Virus record (IMG/VR): IMGVR_UViG_2778261064_000002
DNA from: a virus
Taxonomy: Duplodnaviria; Heunggongvirae; Uroviricota; Caudoviricetes
Direction: 5' to 3' (one strand)
DNA: 9,886 nt
A model generated the notes under the pieces. That model was not told the DNA's origin and made no database searches. It worked only from the letters and a program-made list of their open reading frames with translations. This document shows positions 184 through 9,886 of this stretch, piece after piece; position 1 is the stretch's first letter, and each line of letters opens with the position of its first letter. Position numbers and translations under genes: made by a program.

Positions 184-855
184 ATGGAAAAGAACGGAAA
201 TGCGCCAATTAACGATAAACGTACTTTTTCTTATGATGGAATAGTACGCTTTAACGAACGTCTGAGAATCGCCATGGGAGATATGAGTAATCACGCTCTT
301 GCACGGCAAAGCGGCTTATCCGAGGCATCTATAAGAAAGTATGTAAAAGGTGATAGCTATCCAACTATTGATAATGCAGCAAAAGTTGCTGATGCGTGTG
401 GAGTATCTCTTGCATGGCTGTTAACTGGTGAGGATTGCGGTACTGATGATAATCACAAACGACCAGGTGCGAACAAAAAGACGCAAAAGAAAGCGTTAAC
501 TGATGCGTACAATGATGCGCAGAACGGATTACAACTTATATTGGCTAATCTTCTACCTGAAGATGCTGAAATGTTATTCTCGACGCTATGCAAAGTAGGT
601 ATTAACGGTGTGTTGGCACGATTACACGCAACAGGCGACCATGTTTTAAGTGCTGACCCAGAAACGGTCATCCGAAGCCTGAACATCAGAGAATCGCTCA
701 AAGATGCCATTAGTGTGGCATTGGCTGGCAACGAAGAAACTGACAAAGAGATTTTGCAACGCGCCAAATCCTGTATCCGAGCAGGAACACCAGGTGATCG
801 CGTTCCCGTCACACCGGAGCAAAAAACTAAGCCTATAAACAAGAAATCAGCATAA
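184..855 (+). CDS. XRE-family helix-turn-helix transcriptional regulator (cI-like N-terminal DNA-binding domain, uncharacterised C-terminal domain), 223 aa
   Basis: ORF from the track with ATG at 184 and GGTGA 4 nt upstream. Residues about 20-80 (NHALARQSGLSEASIRKYVKG...AKVADACGVSLAWLLTGE) match the XRE/cI-type HTH followed by the characteristic VS..WLLTG motif. The C-terminal roughly 140 aa looks helical and lacks the S24 peptidase Ser/Lys hallmarks of LexA/cI autocleaving repressors. Confidence 0.8.
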   Translation: MEKNGNAPINDKRTFSYDGIVRFNERLRIAMGDMSNHALARQSGLSEASIRKYVKGDSYPTIDNAAKVADACGVSLAWLLTGEDCGTDDNHKRPGANKKTQKKALTDAYNDAQNGLQLILANLLPEDAEMLFSTLCKVGINGVLARLHATGDHVLSADPETVIRSLNIRESLKDAISVALAGNEETDKEILQRAKSCIRAGTPGDRVPVTPEQKTKPINKKSA

Positions 856-1157
856 GCGCCTCGTTTTGGCGGGGCGTGTGCTGTTAGCTAATCAGCAATA
901 ACCACAACAAAACCGAACACAACAGATGAGAACAACTTGAGGAAAACGGGCAAGGATAAAACACTTTTTAAAAGCATTTAAAACCCGTTAAGTTTGTAGC
1001 AGAACCAGATCAAAAGCGCCCAGAATAAAGCGTAAAAAAAGGCACTTTTGGTCATTTCTCACAAATCCGCCCAGAATCACACTGAATCACCACACCCCGC
1101 GCCACGCAAGGCTTGCAGGTTCTACCAGGCTGCACGAACTCCACCCAGAATTGATCG

Positions 1158-1700
1158 CTACCCCACAGTTGCTCCCACTTTTACACTGGCAGATGCCGGT
1201 GCCACCGTCAGCCCGGTAACGCTCACTGTTTCAGTGCCTTCCTCTGCCAGATACGGACGCCCCACACCGCTGATTTTCACAGTGCGGGTCATCACGTCTT
1301 TTGAGGCAATGGTTTTACCCAGTGAACTCAGCCAGCCACGGAAAACATCAACAGTACCGTTGGGATATTTGATACGAAACGCGCAGACTTCACCGGAGTC
1401 GAACAACTGAACCAGTTTTTTCTGCCCGCTGTCACCCGGACGCCAGGCCAGCGTCGCCGAAGTATCACCGACTGATTTCTGCCCCTGGGTTGTCGTTTTC
1501 CAGTCTGCATCTTCATCATCGAGATAAGTATCATCTTCTGCATCAGCGGTCATTTCGCCAGGTTGCAGATCCTTCACCATCGCAAGACGCAGCCAGTCAG
1601 TGTCTGACAAAGGGTTCGCAAATGCGTCGCCGTTGCCGGTATACATCCAGAACGTCGTCCCCGCACCTTTCGTCTTTGCCAGTGGATTTGGTGTGGTCAT
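1158..1700 (-). CDS. V: Major tail tube protein, lambda gpV homologue, C-terminally short (180 aa; lacks most of the Ig-like C-terminal domain)
   Basis: Translation from the ATG at 1698-1700 ([36 protein letters not shown]...YLDDEDADW...[12 protein letters not shown]...[12 protein letters not shown]...) aligns closely with lambda gpV as I recall it ([36 protein letters not shown]...). Strong RBS AAGGAGGTG upstream. The upstream in-frame extension of the track ORF to 1775 is rejected. The ORF stops at TAG 1158-1160 where lambda V continues. Confidence 0.9.
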
Positions 1701-1710
1701 TGCCACCTCC

Positions 1711-2112
1711 TTAATTCGTGTACGTGATCTGGTACGTGATTTCCGCCATCGCCCAGGTGGCCATCTCATTATCACGTTGATAGTTAAAACCGAGTGGGAT
1801 CAGGGTGTCGATGAGTCCGGAAAGTGCCGGTACATCATTCAGGGCCGGGAAAATGGTGCTCTCCATCCACATATCCAGCTCTGAATCCGGTGCCTGTGCC
1901 CGGATGAAGACAGCAATATGCAGAACAGCCTGCCAGTCATCTTCATCCGTCATTTTTCCGGTGTACTGAGCATCACTCAGCCACACCGCCACGGCAGGCA
2001 GTTCCTGCGCATCAACAAATGCCGGAAGCCCGTCAAAAAACGTGGCGCTGTCTCCACACTGTTCCCGAAGGCGTGCCAGTACGACCTGGCGGATTTGTGT
2101 ATGTCGGTTCAT
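1711..2112 (-). CDS. U: Tail terminator protein, lambda gpU homologue (133 aa from ATG at 2110-2112; alternative ATG at 2122-2124)
   Basis: Translation ([15 protein letters not shown]...ATFFDG.PA..D...PAVAV.L....YTG...D..WQA.LHI.VF..AQ.PDSELD.WMES...P......PALS.LI......Y.RD......A..TY.ITY) closely matches lambda gpU as recalled. The ATG at 2110-2112 forms an ATGA overlap with the Z stop codon. Confidence 0.93.
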
Positions 2113-2687
2113 CGGGTCAGCCATAACCTCAGTTGTTGTTTCAGTGCATACCCCAGCTGTTTCGGCATTTCCGCAGCAATGATGCGGTCGCGGGCATCTT
2201 CAAATGCCTGTGTCAGCGGTCCGGACAGCGGGATTTTCACCACATCAATGGGGTAACGATTTTTGCCATCAATACGCCGCATCACATGCCAGCGACCATT
2301 CGCCAGTTGCTGAATAAACGCATCCCGGAAAAGATATTTACCCACCTTCAGCACACTGCCACGGTACTGCAGTTTTCCACCACGCCGGGCCAGTCTGACC
2401 CGGGCTGTCCCCAGCTTAATGGCGGGCAGATTGCCCCGGTTAACGCGGATCCTGGCCGTCATTTTTCCTGACGGACTGGCTTTAAACACCCGGACACGCT
2501 GACGTACCAGTTTCAGGGGGATCCCTTTCACCTGGTTATCTCCCGCAACGGTATTCCCGGCAACCTGCCGGGTGGCAACCGAGACCGCTTTCTGTGCCAC
2601 ACGGTTTATCGCCCATGCGCTGGCCTGTGGTACCATACGGGTATCAAGGCTGTTCAGATTGCGGATGGCATTCTCAAGCCCCTTCAT
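2109..2687 (-). CDS. Z: Minor tail protein / tail completion protein, lambda gpZ homologue (192 aa)
   Basis: Translation MKGLENAIRNL...AINRVA...RIRVNRGNLPAIKLGTARV...FIQQLANGRWHVMRRIDGKNRYPIDVVKIP...LGYALKQQLRL closely matches lambda gpZ as recalled, and has the same length. RBS AGAGGTG upstream of the ATG at 2685-2687. Confidence 0.93.
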   Translation of the reverse strand: MKGLENAIRNLNSLDTRMVPQASAWAINRVAQKAVSVATRQVAGNTVAGDNQVKGIPLKLVRQRVRVFKASPSGKMTARIRVNRGNLPAIKLGTARVRLARRGGKLQYRGSVLKVGKYLFRDAFIQQLANGRWHVMRRIDGKNRYPIDVVKIPLSGPLTQAFEDARDRIIAAEMPKQLGYALKQQLRLWLTR

Positions 2688-2698
2688 CCCACACCTCT

Positions 2699-2974
2699 TT
2701 ACTCAATAAAGATCATTGGCTTACCGTTAAAGCGTTCATGCCGTGTGACCGTCCATTGTTGTTCGTCATAAACAACGCGATCCCCGCGCCGTGGGCGATA
2801 TCCCGAAGAAAACACCACCAGAGAGACCGCAGGTCCGGACAGAGCATTCAGCTCTGCCAGTGTTTCTCCCAGGATCACAGTCATATCGACATCATTAATC
2901 GAGGCTGTCTTTCCCATCTTTCTGACCGTGATAGCATCCATACGCGCTGCCAGCCGGGAAAAGGGATCAGACAT
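2699..2974 (-). CDS. Head-tail joining protein, gpFII-like (91 aa)
   Basis: Small ORF directly between the head and tail genes. The N-terminal pattern MSDPFSRLAARMDAITVRKMGKTASI resembles lambda FII (MADFDNLFDAAIARADETIRGYMGTSATI) and it has an RGD-containing C-terminal region. Its start overlaps the stop of the upstream DUF2190-like gene by 8 nt. Confidence 0.7.
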   Translation of the reverse strand: MSDPFSRLAARMDAITVRKMGKTASINDVDMTVILGETLAELNALSGPAVSLVVFSSGYRPRRGDRVVYDEQQWTVTRHERFNGKPMIFIE

Positions 2975-3290
2975 TGAGTTTTACCGGCACTTCTTCTGCA
3001 CTGGTTCCAGCATCTGCCCAGACAACCCCGACCAGCGGATCAGAGCCGCTGTTAGTCAGCTGAACTTTTCCGGACTTCAGATAAACCTTCTTACCCGTTT
3101 TCATGTCATCCGTTTTCAGCTTAGGCAGCATAAACACACCTTCGGTCAGGCCGTCGCCTGTTTCACCCTGTGGAATATCGGTCAGCGTCACCGCAAAAAC
3201 ATCGCCCACCTGCACCAGATCTCCGCTGCTGATGGCTGCACTGGCAACAATCGCCACCGTTTTTCCTTCTTCTACAAAATTCTTTGCCAT
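2967..3290 (-). CDS. DUF2190-like small phage head protein (putative capsid decoration/cement protein), 107 aa from ATG at 3288-3290
   Basis: Begins MAKNFVEEGKTV...SGDLV.VG..F.V...DI..G..G....EGVF.LPK, the pattern I recall for DUF2190-family proteins encoded just after major capsid genes. GGAG RBS upstream. The track ORF start at 3335 is an upstream in-frame extension and is rejected. Confidence 0.7.
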   Translation of the reverse strand: MAKNFVEEGKTVAIVASAAISSGDLVQVGDVFAVTLTDIPQGETGDGLTEGVFMLPKLKTDDMKTGKKVYLKSGKVQLTNSGSDPLVGVVWADAGTSAEEVPVKLNV

Positions 3291-3333
3291 AACTGTCTCC
3301 GCACAGCCCCGTTCAGGGGCTGATTTCAGGTAC

Positions 3334-3353
3334 AAAAAAAGCCCTTACGGGCC
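3334..3353 (-). terminator. Candidate intrinsic terminator or mRNA 3' stabilising hairpin just downstream of the capsid gene (minus-strand GGCCCGTAAGGGC stem-loop followed by T7)
   Basis: Plus strand 3334-3353 is AAAAAAA followed by GCCCTTACGGGCC, so the minus-strand RNA forms a short GC stem (4-5 bp, 4-nt loop) followed by seven U. It lies 24 nt after the capsid stop. A second 7-bp hairpin (3304-3322, CAGCCCC-gttca-GGGGCTG) sits between it and the next RBS. The stem is short, so it is probably only a partial terminator. Confidence 0.45.
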
Positions 3354-3376
3354 ATCAGAGTTGTTGTCTGCGACGT

Positions 3377-5335
3377 TTACGCCGTACATTTCACCAGACC
3401 GCGGTGATCAACTGGCGCGACACCGGCGTCAATACGCACTTTCGTTGTCACGCCATCCACACTGAAGCCCTCCATCTGATCAATATATGGCGTATCCACA
3501 CCGTTGAGATAAGCCACTTCAATCGTATCGGAGCCTTTGGACGCAGCCAGGTAGAAAGTGGTCTGGCTGTTATCATCAAGACGAGGCTCTGCAATAACGG
3601 TCGCAAAATCTTTCACCGGGTTAATAATACCGGCGTTAATGTCAGCCCCCTTGACACTTGAGGAGCGAATGACCTGGTTAGCAACAGACTCCATCGCCGT
3701 CGGTACCAGTACGAACGCAGGACGAATATTCAGATGACGCTCCCCCTCTTTCTGAACACGCATCAACTGGCGGGCTTTATCCAGCGATGCCACGTCCATT
3801 GCAGCGCTCTCCAGTACGTTTGCATGTTTCGCTTTATCGAACAGACTTACATTATCTGTGGATATTTTCGGGTTAGACGTCAGAATGGCATAAACCAGAT
3901 CGGCAATAGTGGATTTCGCCGCACGACCCAGTTTCATCGGGACATCGGTCAGCATATTCAGATCATCATTGATAATGGCCTGACGGGTGATACTGAACAG
4001 CTCGCCATAGGTCGCCAGTGCAATAGTGGCCTGTTTATCTCCGGTGGTGACGTATTTATATTCCGCCCCTTCACGCACCTGACGCAGAGCACTGAAGCCC
4101 CCCATACCCACACGATGGGCAATTTTAAAATCAGACAACTGACCTTTCCGCGTCCACTGTTCATAGGTTTCAGGGGCATCTTCCCAGCCCTGCAGAATGG
4201 CTTTGTTCGCAACATCCAGCAGAATATTACCGAAGTCAGACGTACTGTGTGTGAACGCCGCACCGACCATCTGCATCGGGTTATAACTGGAAACCCCAAT
4301 CCCCCGTTCAGTCAGTGACATACGAGCATATTCACGCAGGGTCATCCCGTTGTAGACATTATCACGTTCGGTTTTTTCAAATCCGGCACGCGCCATCAGC
4401 GCCTGGCGGATCCCGTCCCCCACAAAATTACCGTTACCGGCATAAATATGAGCCGGGGTATTTTTATTGGATGGCGTGGACTCGCGCCCCATCTCGTTCA
4501 ACAGCTTTTCGCGGGCCTGCTCCAGCGAACATTCAGGATCGGCAAGACACTGAGCCTGCAGCGTCTGATAACGCCCGCCAAACATGGCAAACAAATCATT
4601 AATACCGTTTACACGCGCTTTTTGCTCTGCCAGTACCTGCGCACGGATACTGTTTTCATCCACCACGGGTGCTGCTGCCTGCACTGGCGTCCGGGAGGCT
4701 ACAGGTTCATTATCCTGTACGCGTGGAGCACTGTTGCGTGGCGGAGTAATCATGTTTCGAATGGATTCCGGCATCTTTTTAAATTCCTCTGTACGTTTTG
4801 ACTGAATACATGCCATTGCCTTAACGGCTGGCGTTACCTGATCAGCAAATCCATGTGCCAGACATTCGGCACCGGACATCCAGGTCTCATCCGCCAGCAT
4901 GGCAGCAATTTCATCGGTGGTTTTCCCGGTTTTCTGTGCATAAGCGGGTAACAGAACCGCCTCAACCTTATCGAGCAGGTCGGCATAGGTGCGCATGTCT
5001 TCCGCATCACCGCCCGTAAAGCCAAATGGTTTATGAATCATCATGAAGGTGTTTTCCGGCATAATGACCGGGTTTCCCACCATCGCAATGACCGACGCCA
5101 TTGACGCCGCCACACCGTCGACATAAACGGTAATGGACGCACCATGTGTTTTCAGCGCATTAAAAATGGCGATGCCTTCAAAGACATCGCCACCCGGTGA
5201 ATTAATATGGAGATTAATGTGGGTGATATCGCCCAGTGCATTCAGATCACTGATAAACTGCTTCGCTGTAACACCCCAGAAACCAATCTCGTCATAAATA
5301 TAAATATCCGCGTCACTCTGGTGACCAGCCTGCAT
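3377..5335 (-). CDS. Prohead protease (ClpP/S14-like), scaffold-like linker and HK97-fold major capsid protein fused in one ORF (652 aa from ATG at 5333-5335)
   Basis: The N-terminal roughly 200 aa carry ClpP-family hallmarks (INSPGGDVFEG, GVAASMASVIA with the catalytic Ser, MIHKP with the catalytic His; compare E. coli ClpP INSPGG / GQAASMG / MIHQP). The middle roughly 130 aa are Ala/Gln/Glu/Arg-rich and scaffold-like. The C-terminal roughly 320 aa look like a major capsid protein. The track ORF (739 aa) has an 87-codon upstream extension overlapping the portal gene; I take the ATG 13 nt after the portal stop. Confidence 0.88.
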   Translation of the reverse strand: MQAGHQSDADIYIYDEIGFWGVTAKQFISDLNALGDITHINLHINSPGGDVFEGIAIFNALKTHGASITVYVDGVAASMASVIAMVGNPVIMPENTFMMIHKPFGFTGGDAEDMRTYADLLDKVEAVLLPAYAQKTGKTTDEIAAMLADETWMSGAECLAHGFADQVTPAVKAMACIQSKRTEEFKKMPESIRNMITPPRNSAPRVQDNEPVASRTPVQAAAPVVDENSIRAQVLAEQKARVNGINDLFAMFGGRYQTLQAQCLADPECSLEQAREKLLNEMGRESTPSNKNTPAHIYAGNGNFVGDGIRQALMARAGFEKTERDNVYNGMTLREYARMSLTERGIGVSSYNPMQMVGAAFTHSTSDFGNILLDVANKAILQGWEDAPETYEQWTRKGQLSDFKIAHRVGMGGFSALRQVREGAEYKYVTTGDKQATIALATYGELFSITRQAIINDDLNMLTDVPMKLGRAAKSTIADLVYAILTSNPKISTDNVSLFDKAKHANVLESAAMDVASLDKARQLMRVQKEGERHLNIRPAFVLVPTAMESVANQVIRSSSVKGADINAGIINPVKDFATVIAEPRLDDNSQTTFYLAASKGSDTIEVAYLNGVDTPYIDQMEGFSVDGVTTKVRIDAGVAPVDHRGLVKCTA

Positions 5336-5348
5336 CCTGAACCAGGAA

Positions 5349-6857
5349 TTATTCTTCGGACTGGTCGTCGGTGTGCTGCGGCTCCTGTCGTTTCGTTGCG
5401 GCACTGCTGCCTCCTTTATCACTGGCCGGATCAGTATCAAATACCAGATCCAGCTTGCGGTTTTCATCAATTTCGGCCTTGCGCCGACGTTTGACATCAT
5501 CCGGATTACGACCACCAGCACGTACCCAGTCTGATTCTGTCGCCGCTCCACCACGAATCTGGATTTTCCAGGCCTCAGCCTCCTTAACAGGGTCAATCCA
5601 CGGCATCACTGGTCCGGAATACACCGCGGTATACAGTGAAGAACGGTCAAGATCGCGGGGTAGCCTGATAACACCGGATGCCACAGCCTGTTTCAGCCAG
5701 GCACGATACATCGGGCGGGTGACGGCACCAATAAACCAGTCCTGCAGGATCAGGTAGCCATCAGTAGACTCAACCAGTTCCTGACGCTGGGCGCTGTAAG
5801 TGCCGTTATAGTTGCGTGCCGTACTGGAAAAACTCAGACGACTGCCCGCCGCCACGGCACGCAACTGACCATTACGAAAAGTTTCAAGGTTAGGATTGGG
5901 ACGATCCGACTTCACCATTCCGATTTCTTCGCCGGGTTTCAGATCGTCGTAAATAATGCCTGGCTGAATGGTAAGCTCGCGTTCATTCTCCTTGCTGCCA
6001 TTACCATCCGGTTCATAGCTCTGCCCGTCGCCTTTGCGGATGTACATCCCCAGAGCAGCGGCGATCCTTGCTGCAGTCAGCTCAGAATCTTCATACTCTT
6101 TCAGGGCACTGAGGCGGATCAGCACACCGGACAACAAAGACGTCCCGCGCATCTGGTGCAGACGGCGAACAAATTTAAGATGCAGCATTCGCTCTGCATC
6201 CACTTCTTTGGTTTCCATCTGCCGCCCGGATACGGGACGGCTTTTATACACCAGATATTTTTCGGGACGCCCCCAGTCATCAACAAACACGCCCTGATTC
6301 AGCCTGTTGCTCTCATCACTGGTCATGGGAATAAAGTCCGGCTCGAGCGCCTCCAGCCAGAAATGAACACCGGCAGAAGGCGTCAGGCTGTTTATGCGCC
6401 CGGAAACCATCTGGGCAAACACCTCACCATCGCGCAGCCAGGTACGCAGCATCAGACGTTCCAGCATCGGACGGGTAAACTGCCCGGTGACTTCCGGACT
6501 GACAGACCATTCACTCCATCGGGTGCGTATCTCCGCTGCCAGATCACGGGCAATGGCCCCATTGCGTAATACCGGATGTGGCTCGACAATAATCCCGTTT
6601 TTCCCCACCACCCGTTCTTCCAGCTTGTCAAATACACCAATAACCAGATCGTGGTTGTTATCAAGGTAACGGGCCTGCTCACGTAACGACACGGCCCCGT
6701 ACTGGCTTAACTGGTCGGCAGTTCGGTTTTCCCGCCGGGCTTTGTGTGTCCGCGTCGTTTTTACGGCCTCATAAGCCTGGATCACCGCACGGGAACGCAG
6801 CCTTGCCGCTTTCCATCCTGGTGAAAAAACGCCAATCACATCATCAAGAATTGCCAT
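5349..6857 (-). CDS. Portal protein, lambda gpB family (502 aa from ATG at 6855-6857)
   Basis: Large ORF between the gpW-like and protease-capsid genes. The internal segment LRAVAAGSRLSFSSTARNYNGTYSAQRQ resembles lambda gpB LRYIAAGLGVSYEQLSRNYAQMSYSTARAS, and the C-terminus is acidic. The ATG start overlaps the W stop codon (TGATG). The track ORF begins at an upstream GTG (6929), which I reject. Confidence 0.88.
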   Translation of the reverse strand: MAILDDVIGVFSPGWKAARLRSRAVIQAYEAVKTTRTHKARRENRTADQLSQYGAVSLREQARYLDNNHDLVIGVFDKLEERVVGKNGIIVEPHPVLRNGAIARDLAAEIRTRWSEWSVSPEVTGQFTRPMLERLMLRTWLRDGEVFAQMVSGRINSLTPSAGVHFWLEALEPDFIPMTSDESNRLNQGVFVDDWGRPEKYLVYKSRPVSGRQMETKEVDAERMLHLKFVRRLHQMRGTSLLSGVLIRLSALKEYEDSELTAARIAAALGMYIRKGDGQSYEPDGNGSKENERELTIQPGIIYDDLKPGEEIGMVKSDRPNPNLETFRNGQLRAVAAGSRLSFSSTARNYNGTYSAQRQELVESTDGYLILQDWFIGAVTRPMYRAWLKQAVASGVIRLPRDLDRSSLYTAVYSGPVMPWIDPVKEAEAWKIQIRGGAATESDWVRAGGRNPDDVKRRRKAEIDENRKLDLVFDTDPASDKGGSSAATKRQEPQHTDDQSEE

Positions 6858-7075
6858 CAGAACCTCGCCAGCCGGTACCCGGGATGCCCCCGTCGTCGTG
6901 TAATCAGAGCCGCAAGGCGGCGCTCCCACTCCTGCCGTCCCTGCCGGATCTCAGATAAGTTTTCCATGGTCATCTGCTGACCATTAAAGGTGACGGATTT
7001 TCCGTCCAGCACCGCCATTTCAGCTTCCGTATAACGCTGAATCATGGCTTCGATATCATTCTGGTTCATAACCAT
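6857..7075 (-). CDS. W: Head-tail connector / head completion protein, gpW-like (72 aa; alternative ATG at 7067-7069)
   Basis: Small ORF between the large terminase and portal genes, as in lambda. The C-terminal RRRGHPGY matches lambda gpW RRRGPAGF, and the central region is similar. Its start overlaps the large terminase stop codon. Confidence 0.75.
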   Translation of the reverse strand: MVMNQNDIEAMIQRYTEAEMAVLDGKSVTFNGQQMTMENLSEIRQGRQEWERRLAALITRRRGHPGYRLARF

Positions 7076-9168
7076 CCTCCGGAAGTCAGCCAGGGGTTAA
7101 CATCGTCAGTTACTGTTTTCTTCCGTTTTTGTTTTTTAACAGGCGTGGATACCGGTTCCGGTGAGGGTGACGGTTCGGTACTGTCCGGGACACACTCCAG
7201 CCAGGTTTCCCGGCTCGCCCACTCCGGTGCATCCGGCCAGCGGATCTTTTCGTATCCATGCAGAATGACCAGAGCCTCGGCATACACCATCAGGTCAAAA
7301 GCTTCGTTGGCACCGCGACCCGGCTTACTCCATTTCCCGTCACTGCTCCGCTCTTCATACGTCAGTTCGTCGTAAAACCAGCTCCCCAGCCAGTCAGGGA
7401 AATGCACATAGCCGGGACCTGGCGAGTCACGCCATAACGCGTTATTCACCCGGTCTTTCAGGGCATCCGTCTGAAGAAGCCAGAGCGGCACATCACCTGC
7501 GGCCTGCGCCCGTCGGCCCGTTCGTCCGGTGTTATCAGGGAATGTACGGGTGATCAGTTTTGCGCGCCGGATGCTGTCGCCCTTAAACAGGTAAATACGT
7601 TTACCAAGGCCATCACGACGGCAACGACGCCAGAATTTATAGGCATTATCAGTGACCCCGTCTTCACCGCCGGAGTCCACCGCCATTGCCATCAGTCGCA
7701 TTTGTTGAGAAGGATCGGAGGCCAGCGGCCAGCTTTTATGAAAAACATCCGTCAGCAGGACATCCCAGTCTTCCGGATAGCTGGCCGGATCAATTCGCTG
7801 GCTCTCCCCGTCGCTGTCACCGCGCAATGACTGCGTGATGTTGTAACGATCAATAATCCAGCGTTCACCACGGCTGCCATAGCCCGTTACCTGAACCACA
7901 AAACGGCGATGACGTCCCGCCTGCACATCCACTGTCGCCACAAGGAAATTAACGCCATCCGGCACACTGCGGGAAGGAACTGGCTCTGCCCGCTGCTCAA
8001 GCAGTTCACTTTTTCGTTGCTCCATGCTGGCGCGGGGAAGATAAGGTAATCCCCAGTCGGTATTGATAACCGTCTTGAGTGTTTCTTCACTTCCGGTTGT
8101 CTCGTATTCCTGTTCTGCAGTAAGCAGTTTGTAAACGAGTTGCGAGAGTGTCTGGTAAGCAGCTGCCGGACCCTCCATCCAGAATGACGCAATACGTGAA
8201 CGTCGGGGATCACCATAACGACTGCCATCCGCATTGATGGATTCACCATCCCGCAACCAGACCCCACGTCCGTTCAGCTCACGTTTTTGTTCAGGCATAA
8301 TCCGTCCTGAACAGGAAGGACACTGAATATAAGCCGCCTCACTTGCCAGCACGGGATCGGCAATATCACGGAAACCAGCAACCACATCGCCGCAGGGCTG
8401 AAAATACTCACCACAGTGTGGACAGGGCCAGTACCAGCGACGGCGATCGCCACGGTTATAGAGCGACAGTATCCCCGTGGTTGGCGGAGCCTCATGCGGT
8501 GAAGTCCGTCGCCATTTCACATCCTTCACATCCCTGCCGGGGGAACTCTCCACCAGCGTCATACCACTGGACATAAATGTGGTGGTACGTTTTGAGGCAA
8601 GAGAGAAGGCATCCCCCTCGCCATCAATATCTTCCGGAAAACGGTCATAATCCGTCAGCGCGACGCATTTATAATCTGATGAGGACATGATATTGACTGA
8701 TGGCCAGCCGATTTTCAGGTAGTTGCCAGCAAGGAATGTTCTGTCATAAACGTTGTTGTCATTTTTGTTCGGACTCAGGCGACTGACCACTTCCGGGCTG
8801 ACGCGAAACGTTCTGGCAAGTCGTTTTTTGGAGTGTTCGCGGGCTTTTTCCTCCGTCATCTGAATGATCAGCATATCCGCAGGATCGCAAATCACGTTGT
8901 AAATCACCCAGCCGTCAATCAGGCCGATAGTCTTGCCGGTTCGTGCCGGACCAACAAATATCACTGCGTCGTATTCACGCGAGGCCAGGCAGTTCATCGG
9001 CTCAATAACATACGGTGCGACCAGCGGATCCCACGGGACTGAGTTCCCGGCCCCCATGGGCACCTGCATATACTGAGCAACGGCATCAGCAACCCGCATT
9101 CGTCTCGGTGCGCGAAGGATATAACCTGAATCGGTTCGTGCTGCCTTTGCGGTTTCCTGATTCAGCAT
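7066..9168 (-). CDS. Terminase large subunit, gpA family (700 aa)
   Basis: Walker A-like motif VGPARTGKT near the N-terminus and a Cys/His cluster WPCPHCGEYF...CPSC comparable to the lambda gpA ACPHCGE region, with size and position matching. The start ATG overlaps the small terminase stop (TAATG), with GGAGG RBS. Confidence 0.93.
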   Translation of the reverse strand: MLNQETAKAARTDSGYILRAPRRMRVADAVAQYMQVPMGAGNSVPWDPLVAPYVIEPMNCLASREYDAVIFVGPARTGKTIGLIDGWVIYNVICDPADMLIIQMTEEKAREHSKKRLARTFRVSPEVVSRLSPNKNDNNVYDRTFLAGNYLKIGWPSVNIMSSSDYKCVALTDYDRFPEDIDGEGDAFSLASKRTTTFMSSGMTLVESSPGRDVKDVKWRRTSPHEAPPTTGILSLYNRGDRRRWYWPCPHCGEYFQPCGDVVAGFRDIADPVLASEAAYIQCPSCSGRIMPEQKRELNGRGVWLRDGESINADGSRYGDPRRSRIASFWMEGPAAAYQTLSQLVYKLLTAEQEYETTGSEETLKTVINTDWGLPYLPRASMEQRKSELLEQRAEPVPSRSVPDGVNFLVATVDVQAGRHRRFVVQVTGYGSRGERWIIDRYNITQSLRGDSDGESQRIDPASYPEDWDVLLTDVFHKSWPLASDPSQQMRLMAMAVDSGGEDGVTDNAYKFWRRCRRDGLGKRIYLFKGDSIRRAKLITRTFPDNTGRTGRRAQAAGDVPLWLLQTDALKDRVNNALWRDSPGPGYVHFPDWLGSWFYDELTYEERSSDGKWSKPGRGANEAFDLMVYAEALVILHGYEKIRWPDAPEWASRETWLECVPDSTEPSPSPEPVSTPVKKQKRKKTVTDDVNPWLTSGGWL

Positions 9169-9659
9169 TACTCCTCCTGCTGTAATTCCTCCTCATCATC
9201 CGCACCTGCTTCGGTCACCCGCAGGGCTATCTGATCGCGCAGATCATCAATAATGGACTGAACACGGCTCACAGCGGCAGGCTGCAGACCGCAGTCGCGT
9301 TCCAGAATATCCGGTAATGTCTCCAGCACCTGCACGACCGCTTTTGCCCAGATGGCAAACTCCCGTCTGACATCACTGGCCGGAATGAGTTGTGCTGTTT
9401 CCTGTTCGAACTTAAGACGCTCACGTTCAGACTGATACCAGGCTTTGCGCTCATGTGGATCCATTTCGCCCTCAGCAACCGGCGGTGGTAACCCCATAAA
9501 TTCAGTCAGAATATCGGTCAACCGGTATAGCTTGAGTTTGTCATGTCCACCAGCGGGACGAATGTTTTTCAGTCTTGCCACGACAGTCTGGCGGTGCAGA
9601 CCAGATAAAGCCGCCAGTTGATTAATATTCAGCACCAGGTTTTTCAACTCATGATCCAT
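9168..9659 (-). CDS. Terminase small subunit, Nu1-like (163 aa)
   Basis: First gene of the packaging operon, immediately upstream of and overlapping the large terminase gene. N-terminal HTH-like segment (LVLNINQLAALSGLHRQTVVARLKN) and acidic C-terminal tail (DDEEELQQEE), as in Nu1-type small terminases. Strong RBS GGAGGAAAT before the ATG. Confidence 0.8.
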   Translation of the reverse strand: MDHELKNLVLNINQLAALSGLHRQTVVARLKNIRPAGGHDKLKLYRLTDILTEFMGLPPPVAEGEMDPHERKAWYQSERERLKFEQETAQLIPASDVRREFAIWAKAVVQVLETLPDILERDCGLQPAAVSRVQSIIDDLRDQIALRVTEAGADDEEELQQEE

Positions 9660-9886
9660 ATTTCCTCCGGAGAGCTTTAAACATGCATCGTGCGAACAAC
9701 TTTAAGAAAACGCGTTCGATGTCGAACAAAAAACACTCAATTCGACATACAAAAAACAAACAACCATTAATAATCAATAAGATGCAAAGATGATGGTGGC
9801 CGATAAAAAGTAACCGGCTCATTTAAACCGTCTGGTCTGTTTCCTCCGGCTCTACAAAAATAATGTCCATCATTTTTAATGGACAC
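9660..9886. other. Non-coding region upstream of the small terminase gene; candidate cos / terminase-recognition region with TCGAAC/GTTCGA repeats and a terminal 7-bp inverted repeat
   Basis: No credible ORF. Imperfect palindrome GTTCGATGTCGAAC (9714-9727), inverted copy TTCGACAT (9741-9748) and CGAAC at 9693-9697. Inverted repeat TGTCCAT-cattttta-ATGGACA at 9864-9885. By analogy with lambda, cosB/cosN lie within about 200 bp upstream of Nu1. The cos assignment is inferred from position only. Confidence 0.25.

Follow-up and report, generated by a model that had tools for sequence, protein, structure and literature searches.

The window studied here, one whole draft contig of 9,886 bp (PTRP01000062.1 of assembly GCA_002965585.1), very probably records the insertion of a ~37-kb Mu-like prophage into V, the major tail tube gene, of an mEp460-type lambdoid prophage. 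The junction, between bases 1167 and 1168, falls precisely at the last nucleotide of a Mu-like prophage that is transposable in other genomes. We assume that the full element, of which 1,167 bp are visible, is present in this genome, and we infer that its insertion was simple. The lambdoid tail module would then end abruptly because the Mu-like prophage sits in V and the contig stops ~1.2 kb inside that prophage, 16 nt within its ner-like gene.

The joint inside gene V

We compared the window by BLAST with 5,426 complete E. coli genomes and a phage collection. In thousands of records the match breaks precisely between bases 1167 and 1168. Bases 1168–9886 are 98–99.9% identical to functional mEp460/HannyBb-type lambdoid phages, with the best match to HannyBb (99.9%) and further matches to cdtI-type phages and many E. 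coli prophages; bases 1–1167 are 100% identical to eight OkiPb strains. In a three-way alignment the window tracks strain OkiPb01701 through ...CTACCCCACA and then HannyBb from GTTGCTCCC. None of the 5,426 complete E. coli genomes spans the 1167|1168 joint by BLAST. Since the split recurs in thousands of records without a complete genome that spans it, the junction is not a chance feature.

The original prediction had stated that the V homologue stops early at 1158, and so it does: the minus-strand ORF at 1158–1700, assigned from homology and Pfam to the interrupted major tail tube gene (V'), encodes 180 aa and ends in ...VKVGATVG, compared with 247 aa for V of phage HannyBb. The ORF end, however, is not the end of homology, which BLAST and alignment with intact phages place at base 1168. 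Residues 1–178 of V' are 100% identical to HannyBb V, whereas the Mu-like tip supplies codons 179–180 (Val-Gly) and the TAG stop, and the V frame reads ...GGA GCA AC|T GTG GGG TAG across the joint. The lambda tail-tube domain (PF16461) is complete in V' (residues 18–152, 3.7e-67), while the Big_2 Ig-like domain, which occupies residues 161–240 in full-length V, is missing by Pfam; V' is thus a disrupted member of the lambda gpV type that keeps the tube domain of the tube-plus-Big_2 pair. The Ig-like domain is truncated, as had been proposed, but the break lies 18 aa inside the domain rather than at its start, and 69 residues are lost rather than about 80. A full-length V relative aligns end to end with the lambda gpV structures 6p3e and 9mfe; 2k4q matches its N-domain and 2l04 its Ig domain. 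Lambda gpV (PDB 6p3e, 2k4q, 2l04), to which the homology is full-length, resembles V' in the N-terminal tube domain but has the whole C-terminal Ig-like domain, which in V' is cut after ~18 residues.

Composition changes near the joint: GC content is 0.52–0.58 on the right and drops to 0.37–0.47 left of ~1100. This agrees with the AT-rich setting described earlier for a convergent regulator gene, which is here identified as the repressor of the Mu-like prophage. The minus strand between 856 and 1157 contains no ORF of more than 30 aa, also as reported before. A terminator and promoter scan of bases 1–1300 returned nothing beyond shuffle expectation that bears on the junction, and Rfam gave no match across the whole window.

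To the right of V', the lambdoid genes are intact on the minus strand, in line with the earlier descriptions of a complete head/packaging module and of lambda-like Z, U and N-terminal V sequences. The U homologue (tail terminator, PF06141, 1.4e-60) lies at 1711–2124 and the Z homologue (tail completion, PF06763, 1e-76) at 2109–2687. They are followed at 2699–9659 by the head/packaging module of an mEp460-type prophage, which by Pfam labels on the called genes comprises a Gifsy-2/FII-like gene, a decoration protein, a ClpP protease-capsid fusion, a portal, a W-like gene, terL and terS (DUF1441). Phages mEp460, phi458 and PhiR47_1 are colinear with the window at 98–99% identity across 8.5–8.6 kb, and the order terS-terL-W-portal-protease/capsid-D-FII-Z-U-V is that of the mEp460-type structural module. 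The cos site falls at about window position 9684, where position 1 of the mEp460 genome maps in the alignment, and the right contig end (9886) lies ~200 nt past it. From cos to V codon 178 the window is fully colinear with the mEp460-, HannyBb- and cdtI-type phages; in those phages, however, V runs to 247 aa, with G, GT and the tape measure gene behind it, whereas V' is interrupted. The portal and ClpP protease-capsid fusion genes (window 3377–6929) overlap by ~55 nt in the gene calls of the source contig, a layout typical of mEp460-type phages, and both seem intact.

The Mu-like element and its relatives

Window bases 1–1167 correspond to positions 8001–9167 of the OkiPb01701 locus (L001), where a complete Mu-like prophage of 36.9 kb (NZ_AP042598.1:2391628–2428522) interrupts fliH and has these bases as its left (repressor) end. 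The two share the same tip nucleotide and gene order and are 100% identical over this length, but differ in insertion site. The first 16 nt of a ner-like (HTH_35) early gene, cut by the contig end, occupy bases 1–16 on the minus strand; the homologous HTH gene (PF13693, 1e-19) runs from 7747 to 8016 on the minus strand of the OkiPb01701 locus and starts at window base 16. On the other side of a 17–183 intergenic stretch, a plus-strand gene at 184–855 encodes a 223-aa repressor with a CI/XRE-type HTH (HTH_3, 1.7e-10; Phage_CI_repr, 1.6e-5), identical to WP_052319567.1, which adjoins the ner, MuA and MuB genes in OkiPb01701. The repressor and the ner-like gene are thus divergent, as is usual at the left end of such phages, and from its position the interval 17–183 would be the repressor/early-operon control region. 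It holds three palindromic copies of an ATCGAAT-type / CGATAATCGAATTCGATAA-type motif spaced by 13 nt (32–76), two exact copies of CAAAAGTACGC (89–99 and 138–148), and promoter-like sites on both strands; the repeats are likely candidate operators. V and the Mu-like ner-A-B operon share a strand (window 184–1700).

Between the repressor and the joint, bases 856–1167 form a non-coding, attL-type left end, recognized by its constant end point and its repeats. Three same-strand copies of (A/C)NCCCAGAAT, at 1012–1026, 1063–1077 and 1137–1151, are presumed to be the transposase sites L3, L2 and L1; at the right end of the element, two repeats are direct and a third is inverted. The sequences of the tips are 5'-TGTGGGGTAG... 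and ...GAAGTTACA-3', that is TGTGGGG… on the left and …GTTACA on the right; TTCTGGG stands at nt 18–24 from both tips, and the right end has the architecture TGT-N14-TTCTGGG. Such 5'-TG…CA-3' termini with multiple subterminal repeats, to which a transposase would bind, are a mark of Mu-like elements.

Phage Mu has three sites per end, in the order L1-gap-L2-L3 and R1-R2-R3 with the third right-end site inverted, a layout that the repeats at both ends of the element resemble. The likeness to Mu extends to a left-end repressor gene transcribed towards the tip (Mu c), a divergent ner-A-B operon, TG…CA tips and near-random insertion, and Mor and contractile-tail genes are present in the family as well. 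The repressors differ, being c-type in Mu and of the CI/XRE type with an HTH in the present element.

The rest of the element can be read from OkiPb01701, where the genes beside the left end specify the 223-aa HTH repressor, the divergent ner-like protein, a 680-aa transposase and a 297-aa AAA+ ATPase. The transposase contains Mu-transpos_C (PF09299), the Mu DNA-binding domain HTH_Tnp_Mu_1 (PF02316) and rve, and the B-like ATPase combines AAA_22/TniB with an N-terminal HTH. The OkiPb01701 prophage accordingly has both a MuA-type DDE transposase and a MuB-type ATPase, the genes for which lie outside the window. Further in are Mor, lysis genes, a terminase, a DUF935 portal, a gpT-type capsid, sheath, tape measure, baseplate and fibre genes. 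Judged by this gene content, the OkiPb01701 element is a Mu-like transposable myophage.

The left end occurs in ~49 complete E. coli genomes, and in these the match stops at window base 1167, give or take a chance extension of 1–4 nt. The sequences beside it differ from genome to genome and include eutC (in EPEC E2348/69), aslB, phnJ, chbG, ypdF, the yfcC-pta spacer, and prophage capsid and holin genes; in STEC316 (H74), the left end adjoins a phage holin gene. A constant end with differing flanks is characteristic of Mu-like transposable phages (saltoviruses), and the constant tip and variable flanks in ~49 genomes identify the element as a transposable phage. The E2348/69 prophage in eutC agrees with the window in tip nucleotide and gene order, and its end sequence is 91% identical over 660–1167. 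Only this part aligns, so its immunity region is different from that of the window. A literature search on the Mu-like element of E2348/69 found nothing.

Searched as DNA against the phage collection, the left end matched nothing but 66 nt of a Klebsiella phage, which argues that no isolated phage is closely related at the DNA level in this region. Among sequenced phages, the closest of which are Pseudomonas VW-6B, Klebsiella ST405-OXA48phi1.1 and Yersinia Tongde, no transposase exceeds 49% identity to the one of this family, and that of Sp18-type elements reaches ~44%. The inserted element thus belongs to a Mu-like lineage other than the Sp18 type, and yet it is a common E. coli prophage, found also in E2348/69.

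Target duplication and origin of the joint

As a proxy for the far side of the window's insertion, we compared both junctions in eight family members from complete genomes. Seven of them, OkiPb01701 (fliH), 08-00022, RM9088 (chbG), E2348/69 (eutC), 160-11H1 (yfcC-pta), Ec55 (ypdF) and SCAID WND1-2021, are simple insertions, with the split target picking up again past the prophage. All seven are flanked by 4-bp direct repeats (ATTG, CTTG, CGCT, CACT, GACA, CGCT and ACTT), where phage Mu sensu stricto makes a 5-bp duplication. We also considered a 5-bp duplication with a right tip of ...GTTAC. Next to the right tip stands A in every case, whereas the target carries G (fliH, yfcC-pta) or C (ypdF) just 5' of the repeat. 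In these three independent insertions the target thus has another base than the invariant A, which therefore belongs to the phage, and the 5-bp reading was rejected. This E. coli Mu-like family therefore appears to make 4-bp target duplications, in contrast to the 5-bp target stagger of Mu (PMC3325207), which is a small mechanistic point. By the 4-bp rule of these seven relatives, the duplication in the window would be GTTG, the first lambdoid bases (1168–1171).

One of the simple insertions, in SCAID WND1-2021 (L014 5658–41473), is a direct analogue of the nested insertion in the window: the element lies within a lambdoid protease/capsid gene, terL and terS continue past it, and the duplication is ACTT.

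We propose that DDE transposition placed a ~37-kb Mu-like prophage at codon 178/179 of V, and that this prophage would carry a CI-type repressor, a ner-like gene, a MuA-type transposase, a MuB-type ATPase, Mor and contractile-tail genes. The window would then contain one of two junctions, the Mu-like left end (1–1167) against the 5' two-thirds of V (1168–1700). The 3' third of V and the genes G/GT/H/M/L/K/I/J would be expected on the far side, ~37 kb away and on another contig, so that the lambdoid tail genes most likely lie beyond the Mu-like prophage. Reading into that far side, one would meet the Mu-like right end, a short GTTG duplicate and then 3' V, with a predicted joint (in window orientation) of CTGTAAAGGTCAGCGTGGTGGTTG|TGTAACTTCGCGTT. 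Searches for this second junction (right end, 3–7 nt, rest of V) gave no match in the genome_contigs, viral_contigs and metagenome_contigs sets, the first two of which gave none for the first junction either, and the predicted 51-aa ORF of the V 3' remnant (from an internal GTG) had no exact match in the protein collection, where fragments merge into full-length clusters. That the targets of seven of the eight relatives resume beyond the prophage supports a simple insertion here as well.

The joint could also be a Mu-like end beside which DNA was lost, either by an adjacent transposase-mediated deletion or by recombination between two Mu-like copies, in which case a head-only remnant would be left. 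The eighth relative, F163 (NZ_OY754349.1; L011 167 and 34733), is of this kind: phnJ stands on its left and a fragment of a phnL-like ABC ATPase gene on its right, the flanks do not show a matching duplication, and the right tip has changed from ...GTTACA to ...GTTACT. Next to this insertion part of the phn operon has been deleted, and as one case among eight F163 leaves the remnant scenario a prior of roughly one in eight. The position of the left contig end, inside the ner-like gene, might in addition mean that a second, partly identical Mu-like element was available as a substrate for rearrangement. The contig ends suggest that the ner/A/B region and the lambdoid region beside cos are repeated elsewhere in the genome, which may harbour another Mu-like prophage whose immunity region differs. 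Against loss, however, stand the seven simple insertions and the window itself, which bears no sign of it, and we regard this origin as unlikely. The original prediction of a deletion or recombination junction is accordingly upheld as to a foreign junction, located at 1167|1168, but not as to a deletion or general recombination scar, given that the joint is the exact Mu-like tip known from ~49 genomes.

A misjoining of a Mu-like end to an unrelated lambdoid contig by a short-read assembler is much less probable still. In its favour, the source is a fragmented draft and the joint is found in no complete genome; yet the joint coincides to the base with the element's biological tip, the two sides have no sequence and no k-mer in common there that could mislead a k-mer assembler, and the V' protein spanning the junction was read on four contigs of 5–10 kb each (collection sources, NCBI and Logan). 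A naturally short V with a displaced tail module, the alternative named earlier, or a point nonsense mutation in V has nothing in its favour apart from the short ORF and is next to impossible, being refuted by the identity of V' to 247-aa V proteins up to residue 178, by DNA homology to every V-bearing phage that stops at 1168, and by the foreign origin of the last two codons and the stop.

Expected consequences for the lambdoid prophage, and known nested phages

With the Mu-like prophage inserted in V, V' would retain the tube-forming domain without the Ig domain. Lambda tolerates the loss of the gpV Ig-like domain, so the truncation of V' alone need not kill tube assembly. The larger effects would come from the length of the insert: if inserted as proposed, it would place the tail genes ~37 kb from the late promoter and roughly double the cos-to-cos length. 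A split tail operon and an oversized cos-to-cos genome should together leave the lambdoid prophage without packageable, tailed virions, and the insertion thus almost certainly disables the lambdoid phage. What seems to be a decayed, tail-less prophage would be a nested prophage pair whose view is cut by the contig end, and calls of prophage completeness in draft assemblies can be misled by such contig ends.

More speculatively, late transcription from V' would run antisense through the Mu-like repressor gene and sense into ner-A-B. A further step, in which a family with a 4-bp stagger receives antiterminated lambdoid late transcription into ner-A-B, so that induction could switch on transposition of the passenger, is an improbable though conceivable extension.

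The event itself is of a kind already documented. In STEC genomes, Mu-like (Sp18-type) phages are inserted into prophages and Stx phages (Microb Genom 2023, PMC10132054), and the GenBank Stx-phage records LC727881 and LC727895 carry the annotation 'region of the inserted Bacteriophage Mu-like phage'. In those cases, as in the window, a transposable phage splits a lambdoid prophage in two, at locations that vary by strain; there lambdoid and Stx prophages are hit, whereas here a non-Stx, mEp460-type prophage is struck in its tail tube gene V. The window is in this respect an ordinary instance of Mu-like insertion into a lambdoid prophage, and it adds another case of mobile elements that inactivate one another.
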